Part shown: piece by piece, positions 1,421-63,475 of the stretch
How the letters are laid out: each line of letters begins with the position of its first letter
How positions within the stretch are numbered: the stretch's first letter is position 1
NCBI GenBank assembly: GCA_031261985.1
Contig: JAISIR010000003.1
Span: forward strand, 26,924 to 90,923
Reading direction: 5' to 3'
Length of the DNA: 64,000 nucleotides
Source: Clostridiales bacterium
Lineage (GTDB): Bacteria > Bacillota > Clostridia > Monoglobales > WRBX01
Program-made: the position numbers and the translations under genes
Notes under the pieces: model-generated
What the model was told of the DNA's origin: nothing
Database searches by the model: none
The model's input: the letters and a program-made list of their open reading frames with translations, nothing else

Positions 1421-1876
1421 CTGTTACTTTTTTTACGCTGCCCGAATGAGTTTTTCGCCGCAAACCTGACTAGCATTTTTCCGTTGCGAGTCAAGGGCGA
1501 TGCGAAGCATCGTGCATTTTACCTTTGACTAAGCAGGGAACCCATAAAAGCCGATTTTGCTTTTATGGGAATAGCGAAGCAATGCGAAACACAAGCGACG
1601 TTTTTGTGCTTTTGGCAAAAACAAGCGAGTGAAGCCATTGCGACGCATGCTAAGGTTGATAGGCGAAAGGCTCATCGGGCAAGCGTAAAATACGCAGCTT
1701 GAATAGATTTAGAGCTTTAAAGGTTCTAATTATCTTACCGGCTATCAACGTGGCAAAGTGGCGAAACTAAGCGAAGGAATAAAGAGCGCTTTCCTCGTCC
1801 TGACTGAGCGGTTTTGCCAATTTGCCGCGTTGATAGCTTTAAAAAATGTAATAAGTTTTCAGAAAAACAAGCCCCA
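1421..1876. repeat. Composite nested-hairpin repeat, copy 1 (partner at 10729-11082)
   Basis: Aligns end to end by eye with 10729-11082. Long imperfect inverted repeats, e.g. GCTATCAACGTGGCAAA...TTTGCCGCGTTGATAGC. Carries an extra ~110-bp module at about 1536-1647. Confidence 0.85.
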
Positions 1877-11082: not shown

Positions 11083-11101
11083 ATTCTGCATTGCCTTTAA
11101 A

Positions 11102-13095: not shown

Positions 13096-13317
13096 AAAAA
13101 GTGATACAAAGATTTTTTATTTTATATAAAACTTTAGATATTTATTAATTCATTAAACAAATATTTATGTTTTATTAAAAATTTATAAATTTTGCTTGAC
13201 TTTTACCTTCTCTTTTTGATAAAATGTCCTTACACTAAACAAGGGCATTTTTTGTTTTTGCTTTTTTTGCAAAAACTAACCATGTGAAGCAGTTACGACG
13301 AGAAAGGAGGGGTTTCC

Positions 13318-38668: not shown

Positions 38669-39872
38669 AAATTATCGTGATTTTGGTATAATACACCGCA
38701 TTTTATCCCAAGCTTTCATTATGAGTAAATACACTAACGAACAAAAAGAAAAAGCGTTGGAACTTTATGCTTCTGGGGTAAGTGTTGCGAGCGTTGTTAA
38801 GGAATGCAAAATCCCGCGAAGCACGGTGTATGGGTGGATTTCAGCCGAAAATCTAAACGGCAATGACGAGCTTGCGTTCACTCCGAAAAACTTTCGCATG
38901 CTTAAAACAAAGGCGGACAAGTTGGAGCAGATTGTCGCTGTGCTTAAATCGTCTGATTGCACCCTTAACGCTCCATTACACGAAAAACTTAAAGTTATCA
39001 AAAAGCTGTATGGGCAATATAGTGTGCATATTTTATGCGAGGCGTTCTCAGTTAGCCGTGGGACTTTCTATAATTATCTACTACGCAACAAAAACGAAAA
39101 CACCACTTATGCAAAGCGGCGTGAGGTTTTTAGCAAACTCGTTAAAGATGTTCACGATGAGTTTAATCAGATTTTGGGTGCAAAGAAAATCACGGCGGTA
39201 CTAAATGAGCTAGGGCACAGGACGACTGAGAAATATGTGCGAAGCATTATGCAGGATATGGGGCTTGCGAGCATTCGGCAGGGGGCAAAAGCATTTTACC
39301 ACAAGGAACAATCAAAGGCAAAAAATCATCTAAATCAAAATTTCAAGGTGGACACCCCTAACGAGGTTTGGGTTAGCGATGTTAGTTTCTTCCATTTGCA
39401 CAAGCACACATATTACATTTGCGTGATTATCGACCTTTTCGCTCGAAAAGTTGTGAGTCATAAAGTGTCGCACAAAAACAGCACACAACTTACAAAATCA
39501 ACTTTTAAGCAAGCGTATTTAACACGAAAGCCCAAAGATGGTTTGATTTTCCATACCGATCAAGGCTCAAATTATCGCTCATTCACTTTTATGAGCTATC
39601 TAAAAGAGTTAGGCGTTACGCAATCGTTTTCGAGGGCTCATATTCCTTACGATAATTCTGTTGCGGAGGCGTTCTTTTCGTCTTTGAAGCAAGAAGATCT
39701 TTATCGCCATAAGTTCAAAACCGAAAAAGATTTCCGCAAAGCCGTCGATGAATATATTGTTTTTTATAACACCAAACGCCCACATACTTATAACAAGAAT
39801 AAAACGCCTGTTAAGGTGGAGGATGAGTTTTATAGCAATAATGAGAAGAATTCACAATAACAATATAGATGT
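38669..39872 (+). mobile_element. IS3-family insertion sequence (ends approximate)
   Basis: Contains the transposase ORF and fills exactly the gap between the copy-4 module and the stop of gene 39873-41279. Terminal inverted repeats are only weakly visible. Confidence 0.55.
38721..39860 (+). CDS. IS3-family transposase (HTH + DDE/rve), single uninterrupted ORF
   Basis: HTH region 'IPRSTVYGWI'. rve core 'VWVSDVSFF...YICVIIDLFARKVV...HTDQGSNYRS...YDNSVAEAFFSSLKQE'. Start set at ATG 38721. Confidence 0.8.
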   Translation: MSKYTNEQKEKALELYASGVSVASVVKECKIPRSTVYGWISAENLNGNDELAFTPKNFRMLKTKADKLEQIVAVLKSSDCTLNAPLHEKLKVIKKLYGQYSVHILCEAFSVSRGTFYNYLLRNKNENTTYAKRREVFSKLVKDVHDEFNQILGAKKITAVLNELGHRTTEKYVRSIMQDMGLASIRQGAKAFYHKEQSKAKNHLNQNFKVDTPNEVWVSDVSFFHLHKHTYYICVIIDLFARKVVSHKVSHKNSTQLTKSTFKQAYLTRKPKDGLIFHTDQGSNYRSFTFMSYLKELGVTQSFSRAHIPYDNSVAEAFFSSLKQEDLYRHKFKTEKDFRKAVDEYIVFYNTKRPHTYNKNKTPVKVEDEFYSNNEKNSQ

Positions 39873-41329: not shown

Positions 41330-41588
41330 TCATAAAAACAAAACTTCGCAAAAGGGGTAAGCGAATTTTTACGGTAATAATCATCGGATTTCTAAAATCT
41401 ATTTCAGACATTTGTGTTCAAAAGTAAACTTTTTTGCGATTTAGTTCCAAAATTTTCACTGTTTTGTATAAGTGTCCGAAAGTTGTTTATAACACGGAAA
41501 GATTAAACCCCTCATTAATTCAAGCGAAAATAAAAATAGCGACTGCACTTTTGGACACGGGGGTTCAAAAGTGAGCCACTAATTCACT

Positions 41589-41662
<74 letters not shown>

Positions 41663-41665
41663 GTG

Positions 41666-41880
41666 TCGTCGCAACTGCTACGCTCAGCTATTTTTTGCCA
41701 AAAGCGCAAAAACGTCGCTTATGCTCCGAGTTGCTCCTCTTATCCCACAAAACGGAAATCGCGTTTTGCGGGAGCCCTATGCGCTTACGCGCATAGCAAC
41801 TGCTACGCTTAGCTTATTTTCACAAAAAGCGTGAAAATATCACCTTGCTCCGCGTTACCTCTCTTTATAATAATATGTAA
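41666..41880 (-). repeat. Two-unit modular hairpin repeat immediately 5' of tRNA-Cys (family U)
   Basis: On the minus strand, 41666-41784 matches 48528-48646 with about 9 differences in 119 nt by eye. Units consist of a GGGCTCCC hairpin, ATAAGAGGAGCAAC, a TTTTTGCG..GCAAAAA hairpin and AGCAGTTGC. Confidence 0.85.
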
Positions 41881-41978
41881 TAGAGAGGACTAAGATTCCT
41901 TTTAAAAAAATAGAACGGAACAAAACGCTCCACCCTAAATTATATATCGCTGCAAAAAAGTGGATATTTAGCAGCTTT

Positions 41979-42053
41979 TGGAGCGGAAGACGAGATTCGA
42001 ACTCGCGACTTTCACCTTGGCAAGGTGACACTCTACCACTGAGTCACTCCCGC
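41979..42053 (-). tRNA. tRNA-Gly (anticodon GCC)
   Basis: Reverse complement is GCGGGAGTGACTCAGTGGTAGAGTGTCACCTTGCCAAGGTGAAAGTCGCGAGTTCGAATCTCGTCTTCCGCTCCA. Confidence 0.9.
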
Positions 42054-42140
42054 ATGACCAATTGCATAAAACATTATAGCATAAAGATGATACTTTGTCA
42101 ACCCCTTTTAAAAAAATATTACCAAATTTAATTAAAAGTA

Positions 42141-42184: not shown

Positions 42185-42261
42185 GCACCTTTAGCTCAGT
42201 TGGTTAGAGCAACCGGCTCATAACCGGTTTGTCCGGGGTTCAAGTCCCTGAAGGTGCACCA
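42185..42261 (+). tRNA. tRNA with CAU anticodon (Met, or Ile2 if lysidine-modified)
   Basis: GCACCTTTAGCTCAGTTGGTTAGAGCAACCGGCTCATAACCGGTTTGTCCGGGGTTCAAGTCCCTGAAGGTGCACCA. The Ile-like body leaves the identity ambiguous. Confidence 0.85.
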
Positions 42262-42421
42262 AAACTTTGCATGCAGCAAAGAGTTAAAAGATAAGAGAGA
42301 AAAGTTAAAAGTTAAGGAAGTTTTGCTAACGCAAACAATTAAAGGCAAAGTTTTGTACTTTTCATTTTTCTCTTTTAACTTTTCACGCTTCACTAAAAAG
42401 CTAACTTCACAAATACCTTTT
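42262..42421 (+). repeat. Structured tRNA trailer repeat, copy 2
   Basis: AAAACTTTGCATGCAGCAAAGAGTTAAAAGATAAGAGAGAAAAGT...GGCAAAGTTTTGTACTTTT, matching 6764-6908. Confidence 0.85.
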
Positions 42422-42446
42422 TCCTTGCTTATAGCAAGGATTTTTT
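42422..42446 (+). terminator. Intrinsic terminator of the tRNA(CAU) unit
   Basis: TCCTTGC / GCAAGGA followed by TTTTTT, the same stem as at 6909-6934. Confidence 0.7.
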
Positions 42447-42508
42447 ATGTTTATTACTAATCATTTATTATTCATAAATTTTTTAATTTATACATTAATT
42501 CCGCACTT

Positions 42509-42559
42509 TGTAACAATTCTGTAATATTTCTGTAACAATTTTGTAAAAAACTCTTGACA
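42509..42559 (+). promoter_or_regulatory. Four 11-bp-phased TGTAAY repeats abutting the cysS -35 box
   Basis: TGTAAC 42509, TGTAAT 42520, TGTAAC 42531, TGTAAA 42542, then TTGACA 42554-42559. Confidence 0.6.
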
Positions 42560-42812
42560 TTTTAACCTCTTTATGATATAGTATGCAATAATTAACTAGC
42601 GTTTAGCTATTTTTAGGATAAATTTTTCTTTTTGAAACAAACGAGTAAGGCAAGGCTGGCGCCTGCCGCAATGAGTTTGTGCGCAAAAAGGGGGATTTAA
42701 CTAAAAAGAGCAAATGATAGTTATTTATTGCATACTAAAGTATGCTAAATTCGATATTACAACCACTTCTATCCGCTTTAATTTTTAATATTTACAAGGG
42801 GGAGCAATGCAA

Positions 42813-44369
42813 ATGAAAATTTACAACACGTTAAAAAAGCAAAAAGAAGATTTCATCCCGCTAGAACCTGGTAAAGTTAAGATGTACGCTTGTGGTATTA
42901 CTGTGTATGACCAATGCCATATTGGCCACGCCCGACAAGCCATTGCTTACGATATGATTACAAAATATCTCCGATTTAAAGGTTTAGAAGTTAAATATGT
43001 ACGTAATTACACAGATGTTGATGATAAAATAATCGCCCGAGCAAACGACTTAGGCGTTAATGCACTAGATTATTCTGCCGATAGAATTATAGATGCAGAA
43101 GCCGATTTAAAAGCGCTAGATATTGCAGATGCCACCGTTAAACCTCAGGCATCGCAATACATACCACAAATTCAAAAATTCGTCGAAGGGTTAATCAACA
43201 AAGGTAATGCGTATGCCACCGATAATGGCGATGTATACTTTTCGGTAGATAGTTTCCCTCAATATGGCGAGCTATCTGGCATAAAATCGGACGAACTAAT
43301 AGAAGGAACGCGCAAAGATATAGAGCCAGGCAAAAGAAGCCCTAAAGACTTCGCACTTTGGAAGTCTGCCAAGCCAGGTGAGATTTCGTGGGAATCGCCT
43401 TGGGGAGAAGGCCGCCCAGGTTGGCATATAGAGTGTTCTGCCATGGCAATAGATAATTTAGGCGAAACCATTGATATCCATGGCGGCGGTCAAGATTTAG
43501 TCTTCCCGCATCACGAGAACGAAAAAGCTCAAAGCGAGGCATTAACTGGTAAGACATTTGTTAAAACCTGGACTCATAGCGGGCTTATTACCGTTGACGG
43601 TCAAAAAATGGGTAAATCGCTTGGTAACTCGGTTACAATTAAGCAAGCACTTAATGCCTACGATAAAGAAGTAATCCGCTACGCCATGCTTTCTAAGCAT
43701 TATTCGTCACCGGTAGATTATAACGACAAAGAGTTTTCTCTTGCCGAAAAGCATTTGTATTATTTTTATAATTCGTTAAAATCGGTTAAGGATTATCTTG
43801 CCAAAGCCGACGCAACTAATGCACCTACCACTAAAGAAATGATGGACATAAACAAAAAAGTCTCTCAAATCCGCGAGAATTTTATAAACGCAATGGACGA
43901 TGACTTTAATTCAGCATCGGCTTTATCACAACTATTTGCTACTTTTAAAAACGTTAATAGTGTTTTAAATTCAAAGGGAGTATCCGAAGAATATAAAGCC
44001 GAGTTCTTTAAACAATTTAACTCGACCGTTTTAGAGTTATACAAAGTGTTTGGTGTTTTGCAATATCAGCCCGAGCAATTTATCGACCAAACGCGCGAGA
44101 AATACATGAAGGGGTTAGACATAACCGTCCCCGAGATTCAGCAATCTATAGCTGAAAGAGCAACGGCAAAAGAGAATAAAGATTACGCAAAATCGGACGA
44201 AATTAGAAACAACCTAGATGCCCGAGGTATTATTTTAAAAGATACCCGAGCAGGTACCACTTGGGATATAAAAGAGCTTTATATAAGAGACTTAGCCGCG
44301 TTAGAAAAAAATGCCGAGCAAGCAAAAGAAGTAAAGCCTATTAGTGGTACAATTAAATTTAACAGATAA
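42813..44369 (+). CDS. cysS: Cysteinyl-tRNA synthetase
   Basis: 'CHIGHAR' (HIGH) and 'KMGKSLGN' (KMSKS). Start chosen at the second ATG (42813, 8 nt from GGGGGAG). The ATG at 42807 is also possible. Confidence 0.9.
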   Translation: MKIYNTLKKQKEDFIPLEPGKVKMYACGITVYDQCHIGHARQAIAYDMITKYLRFKGLEVKYVRNYTDVDDKIIARANDLGVNALDYSADRIIDAEADLKALDIADATVKPQASQYIPQIQKFVEGLINKGNAYATDNGDVYFSVDSFPQYGELSGIKSDELIEGTRKDIEPGKRSPKDFALWKSAKPGEISWESPWGEGRPGWHIECSAMAIDNLGETIDIHGGGQDLVFPHHENEKAQSEALTGKTFVKTWTHSGLITVDGQKMGKSLGNSVTIKQALNAYDKEVIRYAMLSKHYSSPVDYNDKEFSLAEKHLYYFYNSLKSVKDYLAKADATNAPTTKEMMDINKKVSQIRENFINAMDDDFNSASALSQLFATFKNVNSVLNSKGVSEEYKAEFFKQFNSTVLELYKVFGVLQYQPEQFIDQTREKYMKGLDITVPEIQQSIAERATAKENKDYAKSDEIRNNLDARGIILKDTRAGTTWDIKELYIRDLAALEKNAEQAKEVKPISGTIKFNR

Positions 44370-47357: not shown

Positions 47358-47385
47358 TCATTGCTTACATTGTATATGATATAAA

Positions 47386-47464
47386 CAAATTGCCAGCTTG
47401 TCGGCAATTTGCACAAAAGGGCTTTAGAAGCGCAGACGCGATTTACTCGCGTCGAAGCGTATTT
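47386..47464 (+). repeat. Family H1 two-hairpin repeat
   Basis: CAAATTGCCAGCTTGTCGGCAATTTG followed by GCTTTAGAAG plus a GACGCGA/TCGCGTC hairpin. Confidence 0.85.
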
Positions 47465-47492: not shown

Positions 47493-48311
47493 ATGAAAAA
47501 GTTTCACGTAGAAGACGGAATTTTGTGTTATGTTAATCCAAAAACAGCAGGCGAGTTTGTAATACCCGAGGGCGTTACAGAAATTGCCGACCAAGCGTTT
47601 TACGACTGCTCACAATTAACAGGCGTTAAAATTCCCGACACAGTTACCACAATAGGCGCTCTTGCGTTTGAAGGCTGCTCGTCACTAAAAGAGGTAATTT
47701 TACCCGATAGCGTTACGTCTTTGGGCGAAGGCGCGTTTGCAAATTGCGAAAATTTAGAAAGCATCGACCTATCTAGCAATATCAAAAATTTAGAAGATGT
47801 TACATTCTCTAATTGCAAAAAGTTAAAACATGTTAGTGGTTTAGACTCGGTAGAAACAATCGGTTCAAAAGCCTTTTACTTTGCAGGGCTAGAAGCAATT
47901 TCGCTTCCTAAAGGTTTAACAACGCTTGCCGACAACGCGTTTTATGGCACAAAAATTAAAAAAGTTACATTTAATGGTAGTGTCGAAAACATCGTTTCAC
48001 AAGCGTTTGTTGGTGCAAACGATATTTCGGAACTAGAGTTTAACTTTAATGGCAAAAATGCTGGCGTCATTAATTTACAACAAAACAAAAGCCGCCTGCC
48101 TATGTTGCGCAAACCTTTAATGCTAACAGTTGTTCCCGATGCTCAAACCAAGGGCTACAACGTGTACCTAGGTAACGATGATACTAACCTAGCAGACGAA
48201 GTTTATAAAGTAAGCCAAAACTACATCCAAAAGTTCGAGAAAACATCAACAGGCTTCGATTATAAAACACGTCAAGAAGTGCCTGTTTATACACCATCAT
48301 TAATAAAATAG
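47493..48311 (+). CDS. BspA-type leucine-rich repeat protein (no signal peptide seen)
   Basis: Repeats 'IPEGVTEIADQAFYDCSQL', 'IPDTVTTIGALAFEGCSSL', 'LPDSVTSLGEGAFANCENL'. Confidence 0.7.
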   Translation: MKKFHVEDGILCYVNPKTAGEFVIPEGVTEIADQAFYDCSQLTGVKIPDTVTTIGALAFEGCSSLKEVILPDSVTSLGEGAFANCENLESIDLSSNIKNLEDVTFSNCKKLKHVSGLDSVETIGSKAFYFAGLEAISLPKGLTTLADNAFYGTKIKKVTFNGSVENIVSQAFVGANDISELEFNFNGKNAGVINLQQNKSRLPMLRKPLMLTVVPDAQTKGYNVYLGNDDTNLADEVYKVSQNYIQKFEKTSTGFDYKTRQEVPVYTPSLIK

Positions 48312-48331
48312 CATAAATTTTTAAAAAAGTA

Positions 48332-48360
48332 TTGACAAATTCGCATTTTTAGAATATAAT
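48332..48360 (+). promoter_or_regulatory. Sigma-A type promoter upstream of the cys leader/cysE-cysK
   Basis: TTGACA (48332-48337), 17 nt, TATAAT (48355-48360). Confidence 0.65.
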
Positions 48361-48375
48361 ACTATATAGTAAAAA

Positions 48376-48650
48376 ACAAATTGCCAGCTTGTCGGTAATT
48401 TGCACAAAAGGGCTCCCACAAAACGCGGGTTCCATTTTGTGGGATAAGAGGAGCAACGCGGAACAAAAGCGACGTTTTTGCGAATTTTGCAAAAACTAGC
48501 CGCGTGAAGCAGTTGCATTGCGCGAAAGCGCAAAGGGCTCCCGCAAAAGCCGATTTTGCTTTTGTGGGATAAGAGGAGCAACGCGGAGCATAAGCGACGT
48601 TTTTGCGCTTTTGGCAAAAACTAGCGGAGCGTAGCAGTTGCGACGAAAGG
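48376..48650 (+). repeat. H1 hairpin plus a two-unit family U modular repeat in the cysE leader
   Basis: 48528-48646 closely matches the sequence 5' of tRNA-Cys (41666-41784, minus strand). ORF-track minus-strand ORFs here are artefacts. Confidence 0.85.
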
Positions 48651-48659
48651 AAGGTAATT

Positions 48660-48743
48660 ATGCAAACTAACAAAGCAAATTTAGTATGTTGTTGCTGCGC
48701 TTGCTGTATTAAGCAAGTTAGTTTGTGTTGCATATTTATCTAA
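48660..48743 (+). CDS. Cys-codon-rich leader peptide (27 aa, 8 Cys), not in the ORF track
   Basis: ATG at 48660, 5 nt after AAAGGAAGG. Encodes MQTNKANLVCCCCACCIKQVSLCCIFI. Lies 104 nt upstream of cysE, with a terminator and alternative pairings. Confidence 0.65.
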   Translation: MQTNKANLVCCCCACCIKQVSLCCIFI

Positions 48744-48770
48744 AAAACATTGTAAAAGTAATTAGATAGA

Positions 48771-48805
48771 TACCGTGAGCAAACTAACTTGCCCACGGTG
48801 TTTTT
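48771..48805 (+). terminator. Attenuator terminator between the leader ORF and cysE
   Basis: Stem (T)ACCGTG-A-GC / GC-C-CACGGT(G), loop AAACTAACTT, then TTTTT. Confidence 0.7.
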
Positions 48806-48846
48806 ATGTAAAAAGCAAATATGTTAATAATTTAGAGGAGAATATT

Positions 48847-49506
48847 ATGTTTATCAATATGAAAAGCGAAATCGAAGCAGCAATAAAAAACGACCCCGCG
48901 GCAACATCTAGTTTTCAAGTAAAAATGCTTTATCCTAGTGTTAAAGTATTAAAAATGCACAAGATAGCCCATTATTTGTACAAGCACAAACACTTCTTTT
49001 TAGCAAGGCTTATATCGCAGATGGCAAGGCATAAAACAGGGATAGAAATCCACCCAGGCGCAACCATCGGCAAAGGTTTATTTATAGACCACGGAATGGG
49101 CGTTGTTATAGGCGAAACAGCCGAGATTGGTGATAATTGCCTAATGTATCATGGCGTAACCCTAGGCGGCGTGGGGCTAGAAGCAACCAAAAGGCACCCA
49201 ACAATAGGCAACAACGTAATGATAGGCGCAGGCGCAAAAGTTCTAGGGAACATTACAATCGGCGATAACGTAAAAATCGGCGCAAATAGTGTTGTTCTAA
49301 AAGACGTGCCCGCTAACTCGACAGTTGTAGGCATACCCGGCAGAATAATTAACAAAAGTAATAATACAATTAATAATAAAAATAATAAAGGAGAGCAAAT
49401 TAATGAAGGTTTACAAGAACTTAACCGAATTAGTAGGAAATACCCCGTTGGTAGAACTAGCTCGATATTCAAAGGAAGAGGGGCTGCAATCCAACTTAAT
49501 AGCTAA
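48847..49506 (+). CDS. cysE: Serine O-acetyltransferase
   Basis: Start at ATG 48847 after GGAGG; the ORF-track start lies in the terminator. '[33 protein letters not shown]' hexapeptide repeats. The Asn-rich tail overlaps cysK. Confidence 0.85.
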
Positions 49507-50314
49507 GGTAGAGTATTTTAATCCACTATCTAGCGTTAAAGACCGCGTAGGGCTTGCAATGATACAAGATGCAGAAGAGAAAGGCTTGCTAAAGCCAGGC
49601 GCAACCATAATAGAGCCAACCAGCGGAAACACAGGTGTAGGTCTTGCCTTTGTATCAGCTATTAAAGGATACAAACTAATACTAACCATGCCCGAATCGA
49701 TGAGCGATGAGCGCAAAAAATTACTAGCTAATTTAGGTGCCGAGCTTATTTTAACCCCTGCCAAAGAAGGCATGAGCGGCTCAATAGCTAAAGCAGAAGA
49801 ACTTAATAAACAAATAGAAGGCTCAATAATTTTAGGTCAGTTTGTAAACCCTGCCAACCCTGCCATTCATAAAAAAACCACCGCGGTAGAGATATGGAAC
49901 GACACCGACGGTAAAGTTGATTATATAGTAGCAGGCGTGGGCACAGGCGGAACGCTAACAGGTGTGGGCGAATATTTTAAAGAGAAAAACCCTAACGTTA
50001 AAATCATTGCCGTCGAGCCAGCCGAATCGGCAGTTTTATCTGGCAAGCCAAAAGGCACGCATGGGATTCAAGGCATAGGCGCAGGCTTTGTGCCAGAGAT
50101 TTTGGATACTAAAGTAATCGACGAAATTATGCCGATAGAAACCGAAGCCGCGTATGCGACTCTTCGTAAATTAGCCAAAACAGAGGGATTATTCGTCGGA
50201 ATCTCTGCATCTGCCGCTATTACAGCCGCTTCTATTATTGCAAAAACTCAAAAGGATAAAAACATTGTAGTAATTTTGCCCGACACTGGCGAAAGATATT
50301 TATCACTTTTGTAA
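49403..50314 (+). CDS. cysK: Cysteine synthase A (O-acetylserine sulfhydrylase)
   Basis: 'NPLSSVKDR' (PLP lysine), 'PTSGNTG' and '[10 protein letters not shown]'. AAAGGAG RBS. Confidence 0.9.
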
Positions 50315-50710: not shown

Positions 50711-51499
50711 ATGTCAGATGAAAAGACAGAACTTACGTTCCAAGATAGCGGCGCAATTCAGATGGCTACAAGCCAAGCAATTATGACGGCAAACGCTGCA
50801 CGGATGAGCAAAAACGCAAATAAAAAAGACGAGAATTTACGTCGTCTGCCAAAAGCTTTAGCCGATCAGCCCGAGTCAGTTAAAAACCTTTACCGCGAGC
50901 TTACTAAAAAAGATAAAAAAACTTTTGCCGACCTTGTTAAAGGCGAACATATCCCACTAACTAAAGAGGGAATGACACATGTTTTAGAAAAATTTGTTGC
51001 TACTAAATCACCCGCTCAGCTTGGTAATAACTCTACAGATGAAGAAAGACTTAAAAACGATATGCTTTACCAAATGCTAGAGAGTTTAGCGCGCGCAGTT
51101 GGCGTTCCAGAAGAAGACTTACAAAAGATTCGTCGCGGCGAGGACCCTCACCCCGAAGAGCTTAAAGACACCGAGCAACAACTAAGCGCAAATAAAGAGC
51201 AAGATAAAATTGAAGTTAAGCACGCAGAAGCTAAAATTCGTGATGATTATAACAATAGCGATATATTAAAAGAAATTAGCCAGGACGATACCTTAAAGAA
51301 GCATACTAAACGTATAGAAGATGCTATGGATAAAGCTCCTGAAAAAGTAGGCAAAGAGATTAACGCTCTAGAGCGCACTTTCGATAACAGAAAATATTCT
51401 AACGAGAAGCGCAACGATATCCGTGAAGCGTTAATGCAAAAAAGCCCTAAAGTACGCGAGGCTTATGCACTACATCCGCCTGCTGGGCTATCAAAATAA
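50711..51499 (+). CDS. Hypothetical charged protein, first gene of the conjugation-module transcription unit
   Basis: GGGGGA RBS. Lys/Glu-rich with no motif recognised. Confidence 0.5.
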   Translation: MSDEKTELTFQDSGAIQMATSQAIMTANAARMSKNANKKDENLRRLPKALADQPESVKNLYRELTKKDKKTFADLVKGEHIPLTKEGMTHVLEKFVATKSPAQLGNNSTDEERLKNDMLYQMLESLARAVGVPEEDLQKIRRGEDPHPEELKDTEQQLSANKEQDKIEVKHAEAKIRDDYNNSDILKEISQDDTLKKHTKRIEDAMDKAPEKVGKEINALERTFDNRKYSNEKRNDIREALMQKSPKVREAYALHPPAGLSK

Positions 51500-51532
51500 T
51501 TTAACAATAAAAAACAAGGAGTGAGATAAATC

Positions 51533-53524
51533 ATGGCTGGAGAAGGAACCGAACTAAAACAAACCTTTGGGCAAAAACTAAGCAGCACCTTTTTGAACCC
51601 ATTTATGTTCAACTATTACTTTGCAATTATTAAGGCAATCAAACGTGCTATCCAAATTGGCGATGTTGGGCCTTTAAAAGACGAGCTTAAAACTTTAGGC
51701 GAGGTAATAGATAAAAATATAGAGGCACAAGGTAATTACTTAAACAAGCTAGGTAAAGCGCGCGATGGCGTGGCAAACGATTTAAAGAAAAAGAACGTCG
51801 AGCTTGTTGATGTTAATAACGACCTTGCAGATATTGCCGATAAAAATTCGCCCGCGTATAAAGAGGCAGCAGCTAAGCGTAATGCTATACAAAAAGAGAT
51901 TAACGGGCTTAACGAAGATATGTCTAACCTAGACGGCATGATAAAGAAAAATAGTGACTTTGCCAACCAATTGCAATCTCAAAGTGCCGAGATTAAAAAG
52001 TATACGCAAATGAGTAAAGAGCAATTTAAAGGCGTCGTAAGTAGCATGGACGCTAAACGTTGTAAAGAAGTATTTTACGATAATATGTTTAAACCGTTTG
52101 AGACTACAATGAATAACATGAGCATGGGCTATGGTGCCGATAAAGATATTTTGGCATCTGCTCATAGCCAGGCAGTCCAAGGCTTTATCCCCGAGTTGCA
52201 CGATGCAATGTCTAACGCTGTTGCTATTCAGTCGGTAGGTTCAAACTTTGCTCTAGAGCGCAAGCTAACTAAAGAAGAGTGGGAGACTTTAGCGCCAGCC
52301 TTTAAGCAATTAGATGTAGCTTCAGGAAAAGCTAAAAACGCTATCCACGATAAAGCTCCAGAGCTAACTAAACAGGTTCATGAAGAGGCATTAAACGCTG
52401 TGTTTGAAAAAGCTAAGGGTAACGCCGAGTTAGTTGCCGAATTAACCGACCCTAAAAAATTCACGCAACACATGACAGATTATATGGTAGACAAAGGCTA
52501 TATGAACCTAGAGCGTCAAAAGGAAATATTAGCAGACCCAAGATTAGCACAAGTTCAAGCCAACGATATAAACGTATTAAACAACCGTGGCAGTGGTCCA
52601 GATGGTCCTAGTGTCCCAACTCCTGGCGATCTTGGGGAGCCTGCACAGGAGCCAAATATCCAAAGCCCAGGGCAAGGCACTCCGCAGGGTAATGGTCAAC
52701 CAATAAACGCTACACGACCTCAGCCTGTGCAGCTTACTTCTGAGCAAATACAAGAGTTTACTAAAGCCAACGGGTTTTTACAAAAAAATGGGATTACAGA
52801 TGAACAGATTGGCGCTGCACTTCAAGAATCATTAGCCGAAGGAAAGATTCTCCCTACCGATAGAGCGAATGATATAGCTAAAAAAATTACCGATAAATTA
52901 TACGATAACCGCGAGATTAATAACGAGCAAAAGGCGATCCTAGAAAAAACTAGGTATGAGCAATTATCCGAGGCGGCTGTAGATACAAATTTGACCGTCG
53001 GGCAAATGGAAAAAACTCTCGACCCGCACGAAAATGCGTTCGACGGTGCTAACTTAAGCGAAGCATCGCGCACGGTAGAAGCAGCCAAGGTTCGCGGCGA
53101 TCGCGTGGTAGATAAAGCTAATAAGTTTCAGATGGACCTAGATAAAACTCTAGAGCTTGAAGGCGTTTCTCAAAGAGAGCGTAACAAAATAGCTAAAAGG
53201 TATGGTAAGCAACAATATAACCAATACAAGGTAGAGTTTAAAATTATCGAAGGTACAGGCATGTTAGATTATAAAGAACCAATGCTTGTGTCACCTATTG
53301 GCGTTCCAATACTCGACCCAAGGGTTAGCAAGCACTTAAAGCAGATTGATAAACACAGAGCCATAGGCGATAAGATATATCAGCATTTTAGAGAACATGT
53401 TAAAGGTGAACTCGCTGGATTTACCGATAAAAAAGTAAATGAAGTATTAGGTTCCGAGCCAGCCAAACAACTTGCGCAGTCCAGGGCACCAAAAGGTGGA
53501 CTTCCTGCACCTTTGCCTGTGTAA
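51533..53524 (+). CDS. Large coiled-coil protein, unknown function
   Basis: AAGGAG RBS. Long heptad-like charged regions and a Pro/Gln-rich linker. Confidence 0.5.
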   Translation: MAGEGTELKQTFGQKLSSTFLNPFMFNYYFAIIKAIKRAIQIGDVGPLKDELKTLGEVIDKNIEAQGNYLNKLGKARDGVANDLKKKNVELVDVNNDLADIADKNSPAYKEAAAKRNAIQKEINGLNEDMSNLDGMIKKNSDFANQLQSQSAEIKKYTQMSKEQFKGVVSSMDAKRCKEVFYDNMFKPFETTMNNMSMGYGADKDILASAHSQAVQGFIPELHDAMSNAVAIQSVGSNFALERKLTKEEWETLAPAFKQLDVASGKAKNAIHDKAPELTKQVHEEALNAVFEKAKGNAELVAELTDPKKFTQHMTDYMVDKGYMNLERQKEILADPRLAQVQANDINVLNNRGSGPDGPSVPTPGDLGEPAQEPNIQSPGQGTPQGNGQPINATRPQPVQLTSEQIQEFTKANGFLQKNGITDEQIGAALQESLAEGKILPTDRANDIAKKITDKLYDNREINNEQKAILEKTRYEQLSEAAVDTNLTVGQMEKTLDPHENAFDGANLSEASRTVEAAKVRGDRVVDKANKFQMDLDKTLELEGVSQRERNKIAKRYGKQQYNQYKVEFKIIEGTGMLDYKEPMLVSPIGVPILDPRVSKHLKQIDKHRAIGDKIYQHFREHVKGELAGFTDKKVNEVLGSEPAKQLAQSRAPKGGLPAPLPV

Positions 53525-53602
53525 ATATTAAAAAAAGTTAAAAATTTTTTGGGGGAGCAAATCAATAAAGAATCATAAACAAAAAAATTCGAGGTGCTCT
53601 AT

Positions 53603-55324
53603 ATGCCAAAATTAAAACCAAATGACATCTTAATAAATGCAATAGCCCTAGTACTAACTGTTCTGTTGGGCATGCGCATAGGCACCGCTTTAACCGAGTT
53701 TCCGGGTAAAGATTTAATCGTAACCGCACTAAACGATGCCTTAGCCCGCCCGCAACATATAGTGCTTGGCTTACCGCAAACCTTCCAGTTTGGAGCATAC
53801 GCCTTCTTCATCTACGCAGTTACATTTTTGTATATCCAAACTAATAAAAAGAACCTTATGCAAGGTAAAGAACATGGTACAGCCGAGTGGGGCAACCATA
53901 AAGACATCGCATCTATTATAGATTCTGACGATGACAAAAACATATTGTTTACCGAGTCAGAAAAAATGAGCCTAGACACTCATAAAACTCGTAAGAACCT
54001 AAACGTTATGGTTATCGGTGGTTCAGGTAGTGGTAAAACTCGCTTCTTTGTTAAACCTAATATAATGCAGCGTAACACTAGCTATATTATAACCGACCCA
54101 AAAGGCGAGCTGTTATCATCTACCAGCGGATTATTAGCCGAGGCAGGCTACAAAATAAGGGTGTTTAACCTAATAGATATGGCACATAGCAATTGCTATA
54201 ATCCATTTGCCTATCTAAAAGAAGATAAAGACGTAATGCGCCTTATCCGCACACTTATTAAAAATACTACCCCGCCTAACGCACAAGCTAACGACCCATT
54301 TTGGGAGAAATCCGAGACCGCGTTGCTAATGGCGCTTGTGTATTACTTGTTTTACGAGGCTCCACCAGAAGAACAAAACTTTAGCATGATAATGGAGTTA
54401 TTACGTGCCGCCGAAGTCCGCGAGACCGATGAGAACTTTGAAAGTGATTTAGATAGACTGTTTAATATGCTAGAAGAGAAAGACCCTAACCACGTTGCCC
54501 TAAAGCAATACAAGGTGTTTAAACAGGCAGCTGGTCAAACGGCAAAATCTATCTTGGTAAGTGCAAGCGTGCGTTTAGCACCATTTAATATCCGCGATAT
54601 TGGCGCACTAACCATCGACGATAATATCGATCTAGATAAAATTGGCGACGAAAAAACTGTTTTATATGCCGTTATCCCCGATAGTCACGATACTTACAAC
54701 TTTATAGTAGCCATGATGTATAGCCAAGTTTTCGAGTCACTATTCTATAAGGCAGACTTTGAATATGGCGGTAGGCTGCCAGTGCATGTGCGCTTCCTAC
54801 TAGACGAGTTTGCTAACATAGGTCAAATCCCCGATTTCGAGAAGATGGTTGCTACTATCCGAAGCCGCGAGATTTCTACTAGCATAATCATCCAGAACTT
54901 AGCTCAGCTTAAAACAATGTATAAAGATAGTTGGGAGAGTATAACCGGTAACTGCGATAGCACACTTTTCTTGGGCGGTCAAGAGCAATCTACGCTAGAG
55001 TACATATCTAAAGCCCTTGGCAAAAAAACTATCGATACCAAAACCACTAGCAAAAATAAAGGTAAAAGCGGTGGTACAACCGTTAACTTTAACATCCATG
55101 GGCGCGAACTTATGATGCCTGACGAAATAGGACGCATGCCCGACAACACTTGCATTTTGATGATGCGTGGCATGAGGCCGTTTAAATCTCATAAAATAGT
55201 GTTAGAGAAGCATAAAATGTATGGTAAATTATTCGATGGCAAAGGCGCACAAAGTTACGACTATCGCGACCACTTCGCTACACCTTACGATAAACTCGAC
55301 CACTTCTTTAATGAGTTTAAGTAA
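53603..55324 (+). CDS. Type IV coupling protein (VirD4/TraG family)
   Basis: Two N-terminal TM helices, Walker A 'VIGGSGSGKT', Walker B 'RFLLDEFANIG'. Start at ATG 53603 after GAGGTG. Confidence 0.85.
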   Translation: MPKLKPNDILINAIALVLTVLLGMRIGTALTEFPGKDLIVTALNDALARPQHIVLGLPQTFQFGAYAFFIYAVTFLYIQTNKKNLMQGKEHGTAEWGNHKDIASIIDSDDDKNILFTESEKMSLDTHKTRKNLNVMVIGGSGSGKTRFFVKPNIMQRNTSYIITDPKGELLSSTSGLLAEAGYKIRVFNLIDMAHSNCYNPFAYLKEDKDVMRLIRTLIKNTTPPNAQANDPFWEKSETALLMALVYYLFYEAPPEEQNFSMIMELLRAAEVRETDENFESDLDRLFNMLEEKDPNHVALKQYKVFKQAAGQTAKSILVSASVRLAPFNIRDIGALTIDDNIDLDKIGDEKTVLYAVIPDSHDTYNFIVAMMYSQVFESLFYKADFEYGGRLPVHVRFLLDEFANIGQIPDFEKMVATIRSREISTSIIIQNLAQLKTMYKDSWESITGNCDSTLFLGGQEQSTLEYISKALGKKTIDTKTTSKNKGKSGGTTVNFNIHGRELMMPDEIGRMPDNTCILMMRGMRPFKSHKIVLEKHKMYGKLFDGKGAQSYDYRDHFATPYDKLDHFFNEFK

Positions 55325-55364
55325 GGGCAAGCAATAAGCCAGAAGCCAGAAATATTGTAAAATT

Positions 55365-55400
55365 CCCGTCATTGCGGGCTACGACCCGCAATCTACACGC
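55365..55400 (+). repeat. Terminal hairpin motif, left of the GIY-YIG gene
   Basis: CCCGTCATTGCGGGCTACGACCCGCAATCTACACGC. The inverted partner is at 55833-55865. Confidence 0.8.
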
Positions 55401-55434
55401 AAATAAGGAATAGCAAAATAAAGAAGGGTAATAG

Positions 55435-55749
55435 ATGGATAAAAAATATTACGTCTACTTTATGAGTAATTACGATAATTCTGTTTTATATATAGGCGTA
55501 ACAAACAATTTAGTCCGTCGAGTATCTGAACATATAGAGAAACAAAAGTTAAAAGGCAAAAAGAAACCATTCACTTTTAAATATAATTGCAATCGTTTAG
55601 TTTATTATGAAGATTTTAATAGCATAAATCAAGCCATAGAGCGCGAGAAACAATTAAAAAATTGGAAGCGTGAGTGGAAAAACGAATTAGTAGAGAGGCG
55701 TAATCCAAATTGGTCAGATTTAAGTAGAATGATAGGCGCAAAGATGTAA
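55435..55749 (+). CDS. Small GIY-YIG nuclease (UPF0213/COG2827 type)
   Basis: 'YYVYFMSNYDNSVLYIGVTNNLVRRVSEH' carries the GIY...YIG...R motifs, with a downstream 'EREKQLKNW' glutamate. 104 aa. Confidence 0.8.
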   Translation: MDKKYYVYFMSNYDNSVLYIGVTNNLVRRVSEHIEKQKLKGKKKPFTFKYNCNRLVYYEDFNSINQAIEREKQLKNWKREWKNELVERRNPNWSDLSRMIGAKM

Positions 55750-55764
55750 AACAAGGTAGAGAGT

Positions 55765-55865
55765 TCCGTCATCCTGAACTTGATTCAGGATCTACACGCA
55801 ATGTTGTAATCGACTACTATCATTCAAAACAAGCATATAGATTGCGGGTCAAGCCCGCAATGACG
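55765..55865. repeat. ~100-bp double-hairpin palindromic unit right of the GIY-YIG gene
   Basis: TCCGTCATCCTGAACTTGATTCAGGATCTACACGC, 33 nt, GCATATAGATTGCGGGTCAAGCCCGCAATGACG. Confidence 0.8.
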
Positions 55866-56003
55866 TAACCAGATTTCTGCATTCTGCATTAGAACGAAGT
55901 TCTGCGTTCTGCATTATATACATTGTCCGCAACGACACTAAACTAACCCAACATGTAAAAATTTACAATATATATTCATCAAATCAAAAAGGAGATGTTT
56001 ACC

Positions 56004-56318
56004 ATGTTAAAATTCATCAAAGAGAAATTCACAAGGCTTGCAGTTTCTACAGGTGTTATGCTTAGCATGCCAATGACAGCGTTTGCAGTTACTATGCCAG
56101 CGATTGGCAGCGCAAACATGGATTCAGCCGATAGCGTGCTTTCATTGCTTTACAAAGGCATTCAGTACATTGGCGTAATATTTGTAGTATTCGGTGCTGT
56201 TCAAGCCGGCTTAGGTTTTAAAAACGACGATGCTGAGGGCAAAGCTAAAGGTATGCGTTCAGTTATCGCTGGTGCTATTGTTTGGGGTATTGGTGCACTT
56301 GTATCAGGAGTATCCTAA
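56004..56318 (+). CDS. Maff2-like small membrane protein, paralogue 1
   Basis: Signal/TM region then 'GAVQAGLGFKNDDAEGKAKGMRSVIAGAIV'. Start at ATG 56004. Confidence 0.5.
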   Translation: MLKFIKEKFTRLAVSTGVMLSMPMTAFAVTMPAIGSANMDSADSVLSLLYKGIQYIGVIFVVFGAVQAGLGFKNDDAEGKAKGMRSVIAGAIVWGIGALVSGVS

Positions 56319-56366
56319 ATAACATTTTAGTTAGCAGCAATAAAAGGAATTAAGGGGGAAGCAATC

Positions 56367-56939
56367 ATGCTTAACTTACATAAAAAAACTAAATTTTTCT
56401 GTGCAGGGTTATCAGCGCTGATTCTTCCCTTGCTTTTGCTGCCGCAACAAGTGCTTGCAGCCATTAATTTAGACCCTTCACAAGTAACCTCGGCAATGGA
56501 TGGCATTGGCGGCGGCGCGTATGGCAAAATAGGTAGCTACTTTTTAGGCGGCATATTTTGCATAGGCGTTGTATTGGTTACATTCGGTGCAGTTAAGTCT
56601 GGCATGGGTTTTAAAGATGAAGACTCTGCCGCAAAAATTCAAGGTATGCAATCAGTTATTGCGGGTGCATTATTAGCAGCTATTTCGTTAGTAACAGGCG
56701 TTTTTGGCTCGGCTACACGCCGAATTGCCGAAATCGAAGGCGTAGGCGAGACTATATCTCTACTATCGCAAGGAATTACATATTTAGGCGTAGCAACGCT
56801 TGTCTTTGGCGCAGTCCAAGCAGGCGCGGGCTTTAAAAACGACGATGCCGATGGTAAAGTAAAAGGTATGCGCACAGTTATTGCAGGTGCAATCGTCTTT
56901 GCCGTTGGTCAAGCAGCAGCTGCTGCAAGCGGTACTTAA
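56367..56939 (+). CDS. Maff2-like protein, paralogue 2 (two domains in tandem)
   Basis: 'GAVKSGMGFKDEDSAAKIQGMQSVIAGALL' and 'GAVQAGAGFKNDDADGKVKGMRTVIAGAIV'. Confidence 0.5.
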   Translation: MLNLHKKTKFFCAGLSALILPLLLLPQQVLAAINLDPSQVTSAMDGIGGGAYGKIGSYFLGGIFCIGVVLVTFGAVKSGMGFKDEDSAAKIQGMQSVIAGALLAAISLVTGVFGSATRRIAEIEGVGETISLLSQGITYLGVATLVFGAVQAGAGFKNDDADGKVKGMRTVIAGAIVFAVGQAAAAASGT

Positions 56940-56983
56940 TTGATTACTTTAAAAAAGCAAAATATCCCAAAGGGGTGTTTAAA

Positions 56984-57286
56984 ATGTATACAATAATACA
57001 AAAACTCAAAAAAATTGCATACGTCTGGGCGGTAACATTAGCCATTCCGCTGCAAGTTTGTGCTGCAGGATGGTCTGCCCCTGGTGGATATAGCACCATC
57101 GGCGGGTTCCTTGGCGAAGGCATTAAATATGTCGGCGCAGCAACCGCTTTGTTCGGCGCGGTTCAAGCTGCCATGGGCTTCCGTAAGGACGATAACGATG
57201 GCAAGATAAAAGGCATTCAAGGCGTTGTAGCAGGCGCGTTAACCTTTGCTATCGGTGGAATGGGCGCACAATTCTTTACCGCATAA
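56984..57286 (+). CDS. Maff2-like protein, paralogue 3
   Basis: 'GAVQAAMGFRKDDNDGKIKGIQGVVAGALT'. Start at ATG 56984 after AGGGGTG. Confidence 0.5.
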   Translation: MYTIIQKLKKIAYVWAVTLAIPLQVCAAGWSAPGGYSTIGGFLGEGIKYVGAATALFGAVQAAMGFRKDDNDGKIKGIQGVVAGALTFAIGGMGAQFFTA

Positions 57287-57346
57287 TTATTTGACATATA
57301 TCTGTCATTTAACACGCAAGATTTATCACGAAAGCAGGTGATTGCA

Positions 57347-57883
57347 ATGAAAAAACTCAAAACTATAGTGCTTGCACTTGTTGCCATTGCAATTATCCTT
57401 GTACCATCACCCGCCCTAGCAGAAGGCGAAGCCCAAGCTGTAAACGAATGGCTAGGCGGCGCATTTAACACGTTCGCTGGTGCCATGCTCTTCTTTGGCA
57501 TGGTCTCACTTAGCTTAGGGTTTATGGGTAACGACGATGCAGGCTTCCACTTTGACCGCGGCTGGAACAGTCGCAAACAACAAGGCTTAATTTTACTGTT
57601 TAGCGCAGGAATTTTAAATAGCCTAGGCGCAGACGGAGGCAGCATATTTAGCGCAATAACACCAGCCGATTGCACCGTTCCAGGTTTCACATGGATAGGA
57701 AAAGGCGCTAAGGAAATTGGCGGCATAGTAATGATGTATGGCATGGGGCAATTCGCCCTTAATATAGCAATGCCAGATATCGGCAGCCGCTTATGGGGCA
57801 TACGCTTGATAGTCGCTGGCGCGGCAATAACGCAGATAGGCGGCATTGCAAACCTTATATTGCCAGGGCTAGGAATAAGCTAA
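57347..57883 (+). CDS. Diverged Maff2-like membrane protein, paralogue 4
   Basis: Signal peptide 'PALAEG'. 'SLSLGFMGNDDAG' and a second hydrophobic/Gly-rich half. Confidence 0.4.
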   Translation: MKKLKTIVLALVAIAIILVPSPALAEGEAQAVNEWLGGAFNTFAGAMLFFGMVSLSLGFMGNDDAGFHFDRGWNSRKQQGLILLFSAGILNSLGADGGSIFSAITPADCTVPGFTWIGKGAKEIGGIVMMYGMGQFALNIAMPDIGSRLWGIRLIVAGAAITQIGGIANLILPGLGIS

Positions 57884-57936
57884 AGACTTTACCAAACCAA
57901 ACATATACCACTAACCAAAAAAAGGGGTTGTTTCCC

Positions 57937-58476
57937 ATGCTTATTACAAAACAAAAACTAAAAAAATTCTTTTCTAGCATCGGCGCTCGCGTTATAGCCC
58001 TTAGTGCTATTTTCGCCCTAACCCCTATCATCGCTTTAGCCGACCCTATAGCAGACGTCGCCGCCCCAGCAATAGGCTTTGCATCAAGGCTTATCGGCGG
58101 AGGCATAGTGCTTTTTGGCGCGTATCAAACAGCTTTAGCTTTTAAAGACGAAGCAGTGGGCGGCAAGGTAAAAGGTATTATGGTAATTGTAGCAGGCGCA
58201 ATGTTATACGCCTTAGGCGCAATGGATTTAAGCGGGTTTAGCGTGTATAGCAGCGGGCCAACACCCTTCCCAGGTGAAGGAAGCCTTTTACAAATTGCCA
58301 ACTCGATAGCTCAATGGATACCTGGTTTTGGCAGCGCAGCGGCATTATATGGCATATTTACCTTGATAATCGGCTTTAAAGACGATGCGCCAGGCGAGAA
58401 AATAAAAGGCATGAAGTTTATAGTCGGCGGCATAATGATGGCACAGATATGTGGCGTTGCACAAGCCTTGCTGTAA
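57937..58476 (+). CDS. Maff2-like protein, paralogue 5 (two domains)
   Basis: 'GAYQTALAFKDEAVGGKVKGIMVIVAGAML' and 'LIIGFKDDAPGEKIKGMKFIVGGIMM'. Start at ATG 57937. Confidence 0.5.
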   Translation: MLITKQKLKKFFSSIGARVIALSAIFALTPIIALADPIADVAAPAIGFASRLIGGGIVLFGAYQTALAFKDEAVGGKVKGIMVIVAGAMLYALGAMDLSGFSVYSSGPTPFPGEGSLLQIANSIAQWIPGFGSAAALYGIFTLIIGFKDDAPGEKIKGMKFIVGGIMMAQICGVAQALL

Positions 58477-58521
58477 AGGGAAATGATAAATGATAAATGA
58501 TAAATGATATTTCCTGGGCAC

Positions 58522-58620
58522 CTGTTATTGTGGACTTGATTCGCAATCTACACGCTAATGAGGAATGATATCAGTCAATTTCGACGAAGTGTATAGATCC
58601 TGAGTCAAGCTCAGGATGAC
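58522..58620. repeat. Gene-less ~100-bp double-hairpin palindromic unit (MITE-like)
   Basis: ...GGACTTGATTCGCAATCTACACGC, 33 nt, GTGTATAGATCCTGAGTCAAGCTCAGGATGAC. Same architecture as 55765-55865. Confidence 0.8.
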
Positions 58621-58712
58621 TATTTATAAATTGGAGCGTAGCGAGAATTTATTTCATTCATTCTCAATTCTCAATTATTCATTATTAATTGTTTTTTAGA
58701 GGGGTGTTTAAA

Positions 58713-60002: not shown

Positions 60003-60110
60003 TGTAGAATTGAGAATGAACACAATTAAATTTTAGAAAGTAAAATTTAATTTCCTTCATTTTGTATTATTAGTTATTAATTTTTAATTGTTTTTTAAGG
60101 TGGTGATTGT

Positions 60111-60500: not shown

Positions 60501-60586
60501 AACCAAGCCACACAACACAACCACGAATTACTAAATATTGATACAATAGTTGCTCCGGGGAGGGAGTGAGATAGGGTGAATTAATT

Positions 60587-63376: not shown

Positions 63377-63475
63377 GAAACAAGCCAGAAATAATGATAA
63401 ATTTGAGCATAGCGAAAATTTATTGCATTAACTTTTCACTCTTCATTCTTCACTTTTTTAAAAGGGGGTGTTCCC

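Follow-up and report, generated by a model that had tools for sequence, protein, structure and literature searches.

ERIC (IRU) and Correia (NEMIS) elements of proteobacteria are transcribed, structured intergenic repeats of ~100-150 nt that can alter mRNA stability and processing; both are long imperfect palindromes with terminal inverted repeats, and Correia elements also carry a TA duplication. The BOX elements (boxA-boxB(n)-boxC) found in Streptococcus pneumoniae, together with S. suis repeats of BOX type, are modular, form RNA stem-loops and are co-transcribed with their neighbours (PMC3049150). They were first taken for regulators from the genes adjacent to them and were later judged parasitic, and one BOX sits between two T-boxes of a trp leader without abolishing its control (PMC3049150). 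In the Bacillus cereus group, the intergenic repeats bcr1-bcr18 span 100-400 nt and about half are transcribed in 5' or 3' untranslated regions (UTRs) or operon spacers, with bcr10 and bcr18 combining a conserved secondary structure and a 5' UTR location (PMC3446304). Here we describe a unit of ~115 nt in a 64-kb stretch (the window) of a metagenome-assembled genome (MAG) from an uncultured, deep-branching Clostridiales lineage, where near-identical blocks stand directly 5' of tRNA-Cys and of the Cys-rich open reading frame (ORF) in the leader of cysE-cysK, hereafter the cys leader. We propose that the block probably belongs to a small interspersed repeat that is modular, structured as RNA and specific to the lineage, an undescribed family of the BOX/bcr/ERIC-like class.

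The likeness to BOX elements, for which no sequence relation is expected, lies in modular logic: both are small modular intergenic repeats whose modules can be present, absent or tandem. In contrast to BOX, with its boxA and boxC ends resembling terminal inverted repeats, the unit has no such ends, and its module b, a closed multi-loop stem followed by a GACGA tail, is peculiar to it; its host belongs to a deep-branching Clostridiales lineage. With the bcr repeats it shares a Firmicute host, an intergenic position, placement in 5' UTRs and conserved structure; bcr1-3, however, resemble MITEs (miniature inverted-repeat transposable elements), whereas the unit lacks such ends and has no known sequence similarity to them. 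Unlike the palindromic ERIC and Correia elements, it is asymmetric and built of two different domains, and it has neither terminal inverted repeats nor a target-site duplication, the features by which MITEs are recognized. REP/BIME sequences are palindromes of 20-40 nt with a GTAG/CGTC tag, and a RAYT transposase gene goes with them; the hairpins of the unit are palindromic, but the unit is 115 nt long and asymmetric, and a scan of the ~50 largest ORFs of the window showed no gene of the Y1/RAYT type. What it shares with dispersed repeats is the occurrence of multiple intergenic copies in the window and variation in presence and absence (full unit w1535 versus position 10842 in the window, and the loci L082 and L008 versus L009/L042 described below).

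A family of folded, modular units in the window

The proximal units of the two arrays (41666-41780 on the minus strand and 48532-48646 on the plus strand) are identical at 106 of 115 positions in a gap-free register (92%, nine differences), and within module b at 66 of 69 (96%). The tRNA-Cys copy terminates at 41666 and is separated from tRNA-Cys (41662-41589) by the 3 nt CAC. The cys leader copy terminates at 48646 with GUUGCGACGA, directly followed by the Shine-Dalgarno (SD) sequence AAGGAAGG at 48647-48654 and the ATG at 48660. A 23-mer common to the copies is present three times, where shuffles predict 0.00, and BLASTN of the two arrays aligned 201 nt (E = 7e-56). In each array a 12-nt GNRA mini-hairpin, GCGCGAAAGCGC in the cys leader and GCGCGUAAGCGC at tRNA-Cys, joins the proximal unit to a distal one. 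The distal unit of the cys leader is complete and 82-83% identical to the proximal units, while that of tRNA-Cys lacks hairpin 1 and has a CCTCTCT(41888-82)/AGAGAGG(41864-58) hairpin in its place.

Searches of the window with nhmmer and with an unfiltered covariance model each recovered the same six copies and nothing more, spread over four loci (1.5, 13.3, 41.7 and 48.5 kb; Table 1). Five of the six copies are in sense orientation; the w1535 unit is antisense to both flanking genes, which lie on the minus strand, and has lost the SD-like motif. At three loci the 3' end of the unit falls 0-3 nt from an SD or a tRNA start. The dnaA locus is an example: a promoter with an extended -10 element (TTGACT-18-TAAAAT, 13196-13225) is followed by a 5' UTR that consists of little beyond the partial unit and the SD (13303-13312), with the ATG at 13318.

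From 5' to 3', a full unit comprises a 12-bp hairpin (module a, or hairpin 1, with arms CCCGCAAAA…UUUUGUGGG), a linker, module b and the GACGA tail. The linker is single-stranded and SD-like (AAGAGGAG; AUAAGAGGAG), and in three of the four full units AAGAGGAG is exposed between hairpin 1 and the outer stem. This outer stem, GCAACGC/GC-GUUGC (GCAAC/GUUGC), closes module b. Its interior is made up of two stems of 2 bp and three internal loops rich in purines, which lead to an apical hairpin of 8 bp that is A/U-rich; the closed multi-stem domain ends GUUGCGACGA. A consensus fold on the six copies has 31 pairs and is 96.7% paired. Changes on both sides, that is, compensatory changes, were found in nine of the 31 pairs, including the long-range pairs 51-106 and 57-99, in a structure derived from the same six sequences, which are related to one another. 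None of 500 shuffles reached nine pairs, and sliding the 3' partners gave 0-2. Since long-range compensation of this kind is hard to obtain otherwise, the fold is probably under selection. On the strand sense to the downstream genes we counted five G·U cells against one C·A cell, which mildly favours action as a sense RNA over a DNA cruciform.

Several other roles were considered for parts of the unit and rejected. On the sense strand no U-run comes after either hairpin, which argues against terminator function. Promoter-like sites were not found within or between units, and a sigma-54 or sigma-70 promoter inside the unit was dismissed by eye, as was a DnaA box in TTATCCCACA, where the 9-mer does not fit. 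A pairing of GCUCC (6-10) with GGAGC (44-48) is unsupported in w1535. The units have no Rfam match: in a scan of the window with Rfam 15 only four tRNAs reached the gathering threshold, and low-threshold scans to E<=10 over 48250-48850 and 41560-42100 returned noise.

Gain and loss of the modules can be followed within the window. Two ~400-nt repeat copies, 1440-1880 and 10745-11085, are ~92% identical; the first contains the w1535 unit, and the second lacks ~101 nt at the corresponding place (10842). The "empty" copy nevertheless retains GCAAGCGGAACAAAUGC, which is similar to the core of the unit, between its two hairpins. Hairpin modules, and not one single block, would thus have been gained or lost. 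Hairpin 1 is absent with clean borders from the distal tRNA-Cys copy and from the dnaA copy. Its apex exists in two alleles that differ by a compensated CG/GC swap: the proximal tRNA-Cys and distal cys leader units have the first, and the proximal cys leader and w1535 units have the second. Contrary to this grouping, module b pairs the two proximal units. Such mosaic copies are the signature of what appears to be exchange between copies. The scores of the first 30 nt of the unit against the reverse complement of the last 30 (4-6, against a random mean of 5.2) gave no sign of terminal inverted repeats, the unit flanks hold no common direct repeat that could represent a target-site duplication, and only short ambiguous AAGCA/A(A/T)GC repeats appear where modules of w1535 meet their flanks. 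The ~400-nt repeat itself is non-coding, has long internal inverted repeats (GCTATCAACG…CGTTGATAGC) and no Rfam match; one of its copies lies between two minus-strand genes, and the other is flanked by rplU and the gene for RNase Y.

These results bear out most of what a first-pass annotation, made from the sequence alone, had described. The near-identical leader blocks, for which ~9 differences had been counted by eye, differ at 9/115 positions and have the sequence and coordinates it gave; the more diverged unit that it placed upstream at both loci proved to be full at the cys leader and partial at tRNA-Cys; and the related modules noted at 1536-1647 and in the dnaA 5' UTR correspond to a full unit (1533-1647) and a partial one (13240-13301). 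Its suggestion of a dispersed repeat shaped by recent spread or gene conversion agrees with the six copies at four loci, the presence and absence in the 400-nt paralogues and the mosaics, and the covariance across copies that it had proposed to look for is seen in the 9/31 compensated pairs.

Outside the window, matches to the unit were scarce. Exact-pattern scans gave no matches to AAGCGACGTTTTTGNGNNTTTNGCAAAAA in genome contig and metagenome contig collections and none to TTTTGTGGGATAAGAGGAGCAAC in metagenome contig and viral contig collections. Plasmids and phages gave no BLASTN match to the array, and nothing came of a proxy census that looked for spurious repeat-encoded ORFs in a set of 5.8 billion proteins.

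The cysteine cluster and its attenuator

The Cys-related genes of the window form one 9-kb cluster of tRNA-Cys, cysS (42807-44369), the gene for a PatB-type C-S lyase, nifS, the leader ORF, cysE and cysK, together with a leucine-rich repeat (LRR) protein that is not cysteine-related. Upstream of tRNA-Cys, at a distance of 316 nt, lies tRNA-Gly (41979-42053) with a consensus promoter at 42101-42073. A terminator-like hairpin (41937-41911) is located between the two tRNAs, and no convincing promoter was found there. The units and tRNA-Cys would therefore be co-transcribed from the promoter at tRNA-Gly.

The cys leader is ordered as promoter, hairpin X, two repeat units, SD and leader ORF. The leader ORF (48660-48743) encodes MQTNKANLVCCCCACCIKQVSLCCIFI, with eight Cys in 27 codons. 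A 1:2 hairpin (48699-48718) forms within the run of Cys codons, an antiterminator (48713-26/48782-94) with a perfect 13-nt pairing forms once the first 20 nt are masked, and a terminator with a U-run follows (48769-48808). The Cys-rich ORF, the 1:2 hairpin, the 2:3 antiterminator and the terminator, by which leader-peptide regulation is recognized, are thus all found in the attenuator and not in the repeat, and the attenuator folds complete without it. Control of cysE-cysK would be exerted by the leader-peptide attenuator 3' of the repeat, and not by the repeat. The resemblance to T-box and leader-peptide systems concerns the setting, the leader of an amino-acid biosynthesis operon with a genuine Cys-codon attenuator, whereas the repeat lies upstream of that attenuator and is separable from it. 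The T-box model RF00230 had no match to E<=10 over 48250-48850 and 41560-42100, nor to E<=1 over 42260-42830.

Hairpin X belongs to a different family, AAACAAATTGCCAGCTTGTCGGCAATTTGCACA, with members at 4987-5035, 5131-5179, 47383-47431 and 48374-48406. Those at 5131, 47383 and 48374 lie just 3' of a promoter-like site, at the start of a 5' UTR. Three copies of hairpin X continue into TTTAGAAG and a second hairpin that varies, whereas in the cys leader that place is taken by the repeat units.

Table 1 Features of the tRNA-Cys and cys leader loci and the other repeat copies in the window.
Feature	Position	Strand	Description
Full unit w1535	1533..1647	+	75-81% identical; inside the 400-nt repeat copy 1440-1880
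Partial unit at dnaA	13240..13301	+	AAGGGC, hairpin 2 and tail ACGACGA; 33.4 bits
tRNA-Cys (GCA)	41589..41662	-	CCA encoded
Proximal full unit, tRNA-Cys array	41666..41780	-	Hairpin 1, SD-like linker and module b; covariance model 132.6 bits
GNRA mini-hairpin linker GCGCGTAAGCGC, tRNA-Cys array	41781..41792	-	Read from sequence and fold
Distal partial unit, tRNA-Cys array	41791..41868	-	SD-like AAAGAGAGG and module b; 73.5 bits
Sigma-70-type promoter, cys leader transcript	48332..48360	+	Perfect TTGACA-17-TATAAT
Hairpin X module	48374..48406	+	5' end of cys leader RNA; different repeat family
Distal full unit, cys leader array	48407..48521	+	Covariance model 129.4 bits
GNRA mini-hairpin linker GCGCGAAAGCGC, cys leader array	48520..48531	+	Joins distal and proximal units
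Proximal full unit, cys leader array	48532..48646	+	Ends at leader-ORF SD; 139.7 bits
Leader-peptide attenuator	48660..48808	+	Self-contained, separate from repeat
cysE	48847-49506	+	Downstream of attenuator
cysK ORF	49403-50314	+	Downstream of cysE

For comparison we used 86 relatives' loci totalling 1.29 Mb. In the collections the best CysE was 78% identical and the next-best CysS 62%; the best usable relative, locus L082, has a CysE 73% identical to that of the window. There cysE is preceded by a consensus promoter, a 5' UTR of ~10 nt, an SD and an equivalent of the attenuator (2035-2170), made up of the leader peptide MQLSQICCCCYFYFNQI with a terminator. The repeat unit is absent from this leader, and across all 86 loci none was found in a cysE leader. 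With a leader peptide and a terminator but no repeat, L082 indicates that the repeat is dispensable to the design there. In the window itself, no unit stands in front of cysS, patB or nifS of the same cluster, and the cysS leader is also without a T-box. Because the Cys genes are gathered in 9 kb, any two arrays placed there would read as "upstream of Cys genes", and the Cys association is inseparable from physical proximity. The same proximity would favour gene conversion, which could explain why these two arrays are the most alike.

Related elements in other Clostridia and rival explanations

A covariance model built from the window copies only was run on the relatives' loci and gave two weak matches in other Clostridia MAGs, neither at cysE: L064 (28 bits), from a goat-gut Clostridia MAG, and L008 (23 bits), from an Oscillospiraceae MAG. 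In an alignment fitted to the model, both keep GAGGAG-[G/C]AA[C/G]…UU[G/C]CGACGA with compensated outer-stem pairs, and the element ends 13 nt (L064) or 4 nt (L008) before a start codon. The minimum free energy (MFE) fold of L008 independently yields the architecture of module b; that of L064 is without the outer stem. The L008 element belongs to a multi-hairpin insertion of ~135 nt (1469-1625) that separates a DUF1385 gene from prmC. Two relatives of L008, L009 and L042, have at prmC a 22-nt spacer with an ordinary SD-10 nt-ATG arrangement, whereas the only SD of L008 prmC, GGAGGAG, is placed 5' of the outer stem, with its ATG 4 nt past GCGACGA. The L008 prmC may thus possess a natural split ribosome-binding site. 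Taken together, the two loci suggest that related cassettes exist in distant Clostridia, again insertion-like, and give thin grounds for a positive function. A rebuilt covariance model found no further members. Two other candidates were rejected: a covariance-model match in L080, whose outer stem is unpaired, and a pattern match in L033, which lies inside a coding region and has no structure. Separately, 3' of the L064 element we noted tandemly duplicated segments (1327-2018, minus strand) with a 27-aa peptide, MGHS(R/H)FASCLLDDP(S/N)LSASVPVCAPFC, and a tRNA T-arm-like GGTTCAAGTCCC; neither ARAGORN nor Rfam called a tRNA or tmRNA gene there.

Several of these observations weigh against regarding the block as an interspersed repeat. 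The covariation, the sense-strand G·U cells, the purine-rich loops and the abutment to SDs and tRNA starts also fit a functional RNA, and the motifs conserved in L008 and L064 argue for more than neutral junk. The units show no mobility apparatus, with neither terminal inverted repeats nor target duplication, and no unit-associated transposase was seen among the larger window ORFs scanned, where the sole transposase is of the IS3 type, 2 kb away and with no sign of a link. The term "interspersed repeat" is itself drawn from four loci in the window. It is conceivable, though on balance unlikely, that the unit is a general-purpose 5' module, an exapted or selected cis-acting RNA cassette reused before unrelated genes. 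It would guard the 5' end of the RNA that follows, binding 30S subunits in the manner of a STAB-SD and shielding the RNA from RNase J1 by its hairpins, or it would be compatible with translation initiation as a structure bridging SD and AUG. The nine covarying pairs, the G·U bias, the exposure of AAGAGGAG in 3/4 full units, the ends that fall 0-3 nt from an SD or from the start of a tRNA, the SD and ATG on either side of the L008 fold where relatives are ordinary, and the recurrence of motifs in distant Clostridia would all suit such a module. Precedents exist in the split translation initiation regions of T4 genes 38 and 25, with a folded insert between SD and AUG (PMC3014915), which the folded insert in L008 recalls, and in the STAB-SD of cry3A, a non-initiating SD-like sequence in the 5' UTR (PMC4113751) to which that of the unit can be likened. 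These, however, are features of single genes and not repeats, and most window copies precede an ordinary SD. Moreover, w1535 is without the SD-like motif and antisense to its neighbours, a stabilizing or translational role makes no sense before a tRNA, and just two weak matches turned up in 1.29 Mb, one of which, L064, has no outer stem in its MFE fold. A bolder form of the idea, spanning this MAG, L008 and L064, is that module b and the SD-like sequence on its 5' side form a portable RNA cassette that closes on itself and is shared by distant Clostridia, a mobile translation-initiation and stability module and not inert repeat DNA; we consider this rather improbable. Such a cassette would land or be retained directly before start codons and the 5' ends of stable RNAs, would bear its own ribosome-binding or 5'-protecting signal and could split SD from AUG without killing translation.

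We know of no cysteine riboswitch, so that a new sensor is conceivable, and the first-pass annotation had raised a shared cis-acting leader coordinating tRNA-Cys with cysE-cysK. Such a two-unit RNA, sensing cysteine or tRNA-Cys or binding a common factor, would account for the finding that the two most similar copies (92%, and 96% in module b) lie in sense orientation directly 5' of Cys-related genes, and that both arrays have two units joined by a GNRA linker. We nevertheless judge it very unlikely, since family members occur at dnaA and in an unrelated repeat, none precedes cysS, patB or nifS within that cluster, the leader-peptide design recurs in L082 with the block missing, the attenuator is complete alone, and neither a T-box or Rfam match nor a specifier or UGGN feature conserved among the loops was found; the 9-kb cluster offers proximity as the explanation of both similarity and apparent association. 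Two kinds of evidence had been named as counting against the shared leader. The block is indeed absent from the only comparable Cys locus, that of L082, and copies do occur at unrelated genes, but these are less similar and not, as envisaged, equally so. The multicopy small RNAs (sRNAs) LhrC of Listeria, some of which lie in tandem, offer another model, in which each unit would be an independent sRNA gene. The length of ~115 nt, the structure, the tandem arrangement beside cys genes and a UCCC motif are in keeping with it, but there is no promoter-like site within or between units and no sense-strand terminator; lying between a consensus promoter and an SD, the units would instead be part of a 5' UTR, and we regard separate sRNA genes as highly improbable. 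That the repeats are an assembly artefact or chance similarity is scarcely credible. The source is a MAG, and two independent Logan contigs, L001 and L087 (SRR14710920), stop short of the repeat loci: they are 100% identical to the window, add 715 nt of new sequence, are without the repeat, and break off within hairpin X (47411) and within the 400-nt repeat (1456), which fits assembly breaks at multi-copy sequence. The copies, however, differ by 8-40% and sit in unique flanks, their differences are compensatory, and shuffles lead one to expect 0 matches.

If the block is an interspersed repeat, as we favour, its copies would reside in transcribed non-coding DNA and be carried as passengers of leader or spacer RNA. 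Each module would fold by itself, module b being closed by its own stem, so that a copy could directly abut an SD, start codon or RNase P site and leave it undisturbed; because the modules are self-contained, copies could survive in such places and the fold could be conserved. The arrays at tRNA-Cys and in the cys leader would be two-unit paralogues, 7 kb apart, whose sequences were exchanged by duplication or gene conversion.

Genomic setting and significance

The intergenic DNA of the window holds several further repeat families. A conserved 55-nt promoter/SD region is repeated before six minus-strand genes (31872, 32322, 35520, 36836, 38617 and 41279) that belong to the island at 27-41 kb described below, and the 3' flanks of tRNA-Lys and tRNA-Met (6707-6903 and 42205-42397) are 77-85% identical over ~200 nt, with a long A/T-rich palindromic segment. 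The 9-nt DNA periodicity of a gene for a collagen-like GXY-repeat protein (8994-9623; Pfam Collagen) dominates the repeat-finder output. DnaA (13318-14826) has a long, low-complexity P/T/N-rich linker at about residues 105-175. The ORF after dnaA (14971-16200) has no Pfam match, and as no recognisable dnaN was found there, dnaA may not mark a canonical origin region. The window also encodes the sporulation genes spoIIAA, spoIIAB and sigF. Between 27 and 41 kb, genes for TIR-domain, HNH and HEPN (RiboL-PSP) proteins and the IS3-type transposase (38721-39860) make up what looks like a defence island ending at tRNA-Cys. Conjugative-element genes occupy 50711-64000, among them one for a coupling protein of the VirD4/TraG type (53594-55324) and one for a P-loop ATPase, VirB4/TraG (60587-63376); as they begin directly 3' of cysK, the Cys cluster would be flanked by mobile DNA on both sides.

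The locus illustrates that function should not be read from the genes that neighbour a repeat: what looked like a cysteine regulon leader is better explained by a repeat and local gene conversion. With nine of 31 pairs compensated among six copies, the family is a clean example of a repeat whose fold appears to be under selection, and its copies lie flush with ribosome-binding sites and with the 5' end of a tRNA. If it is true that the Clostridia cassettes work between SD and AUG, they would be a natural mobile version of the split ribosome-binding site of T4.

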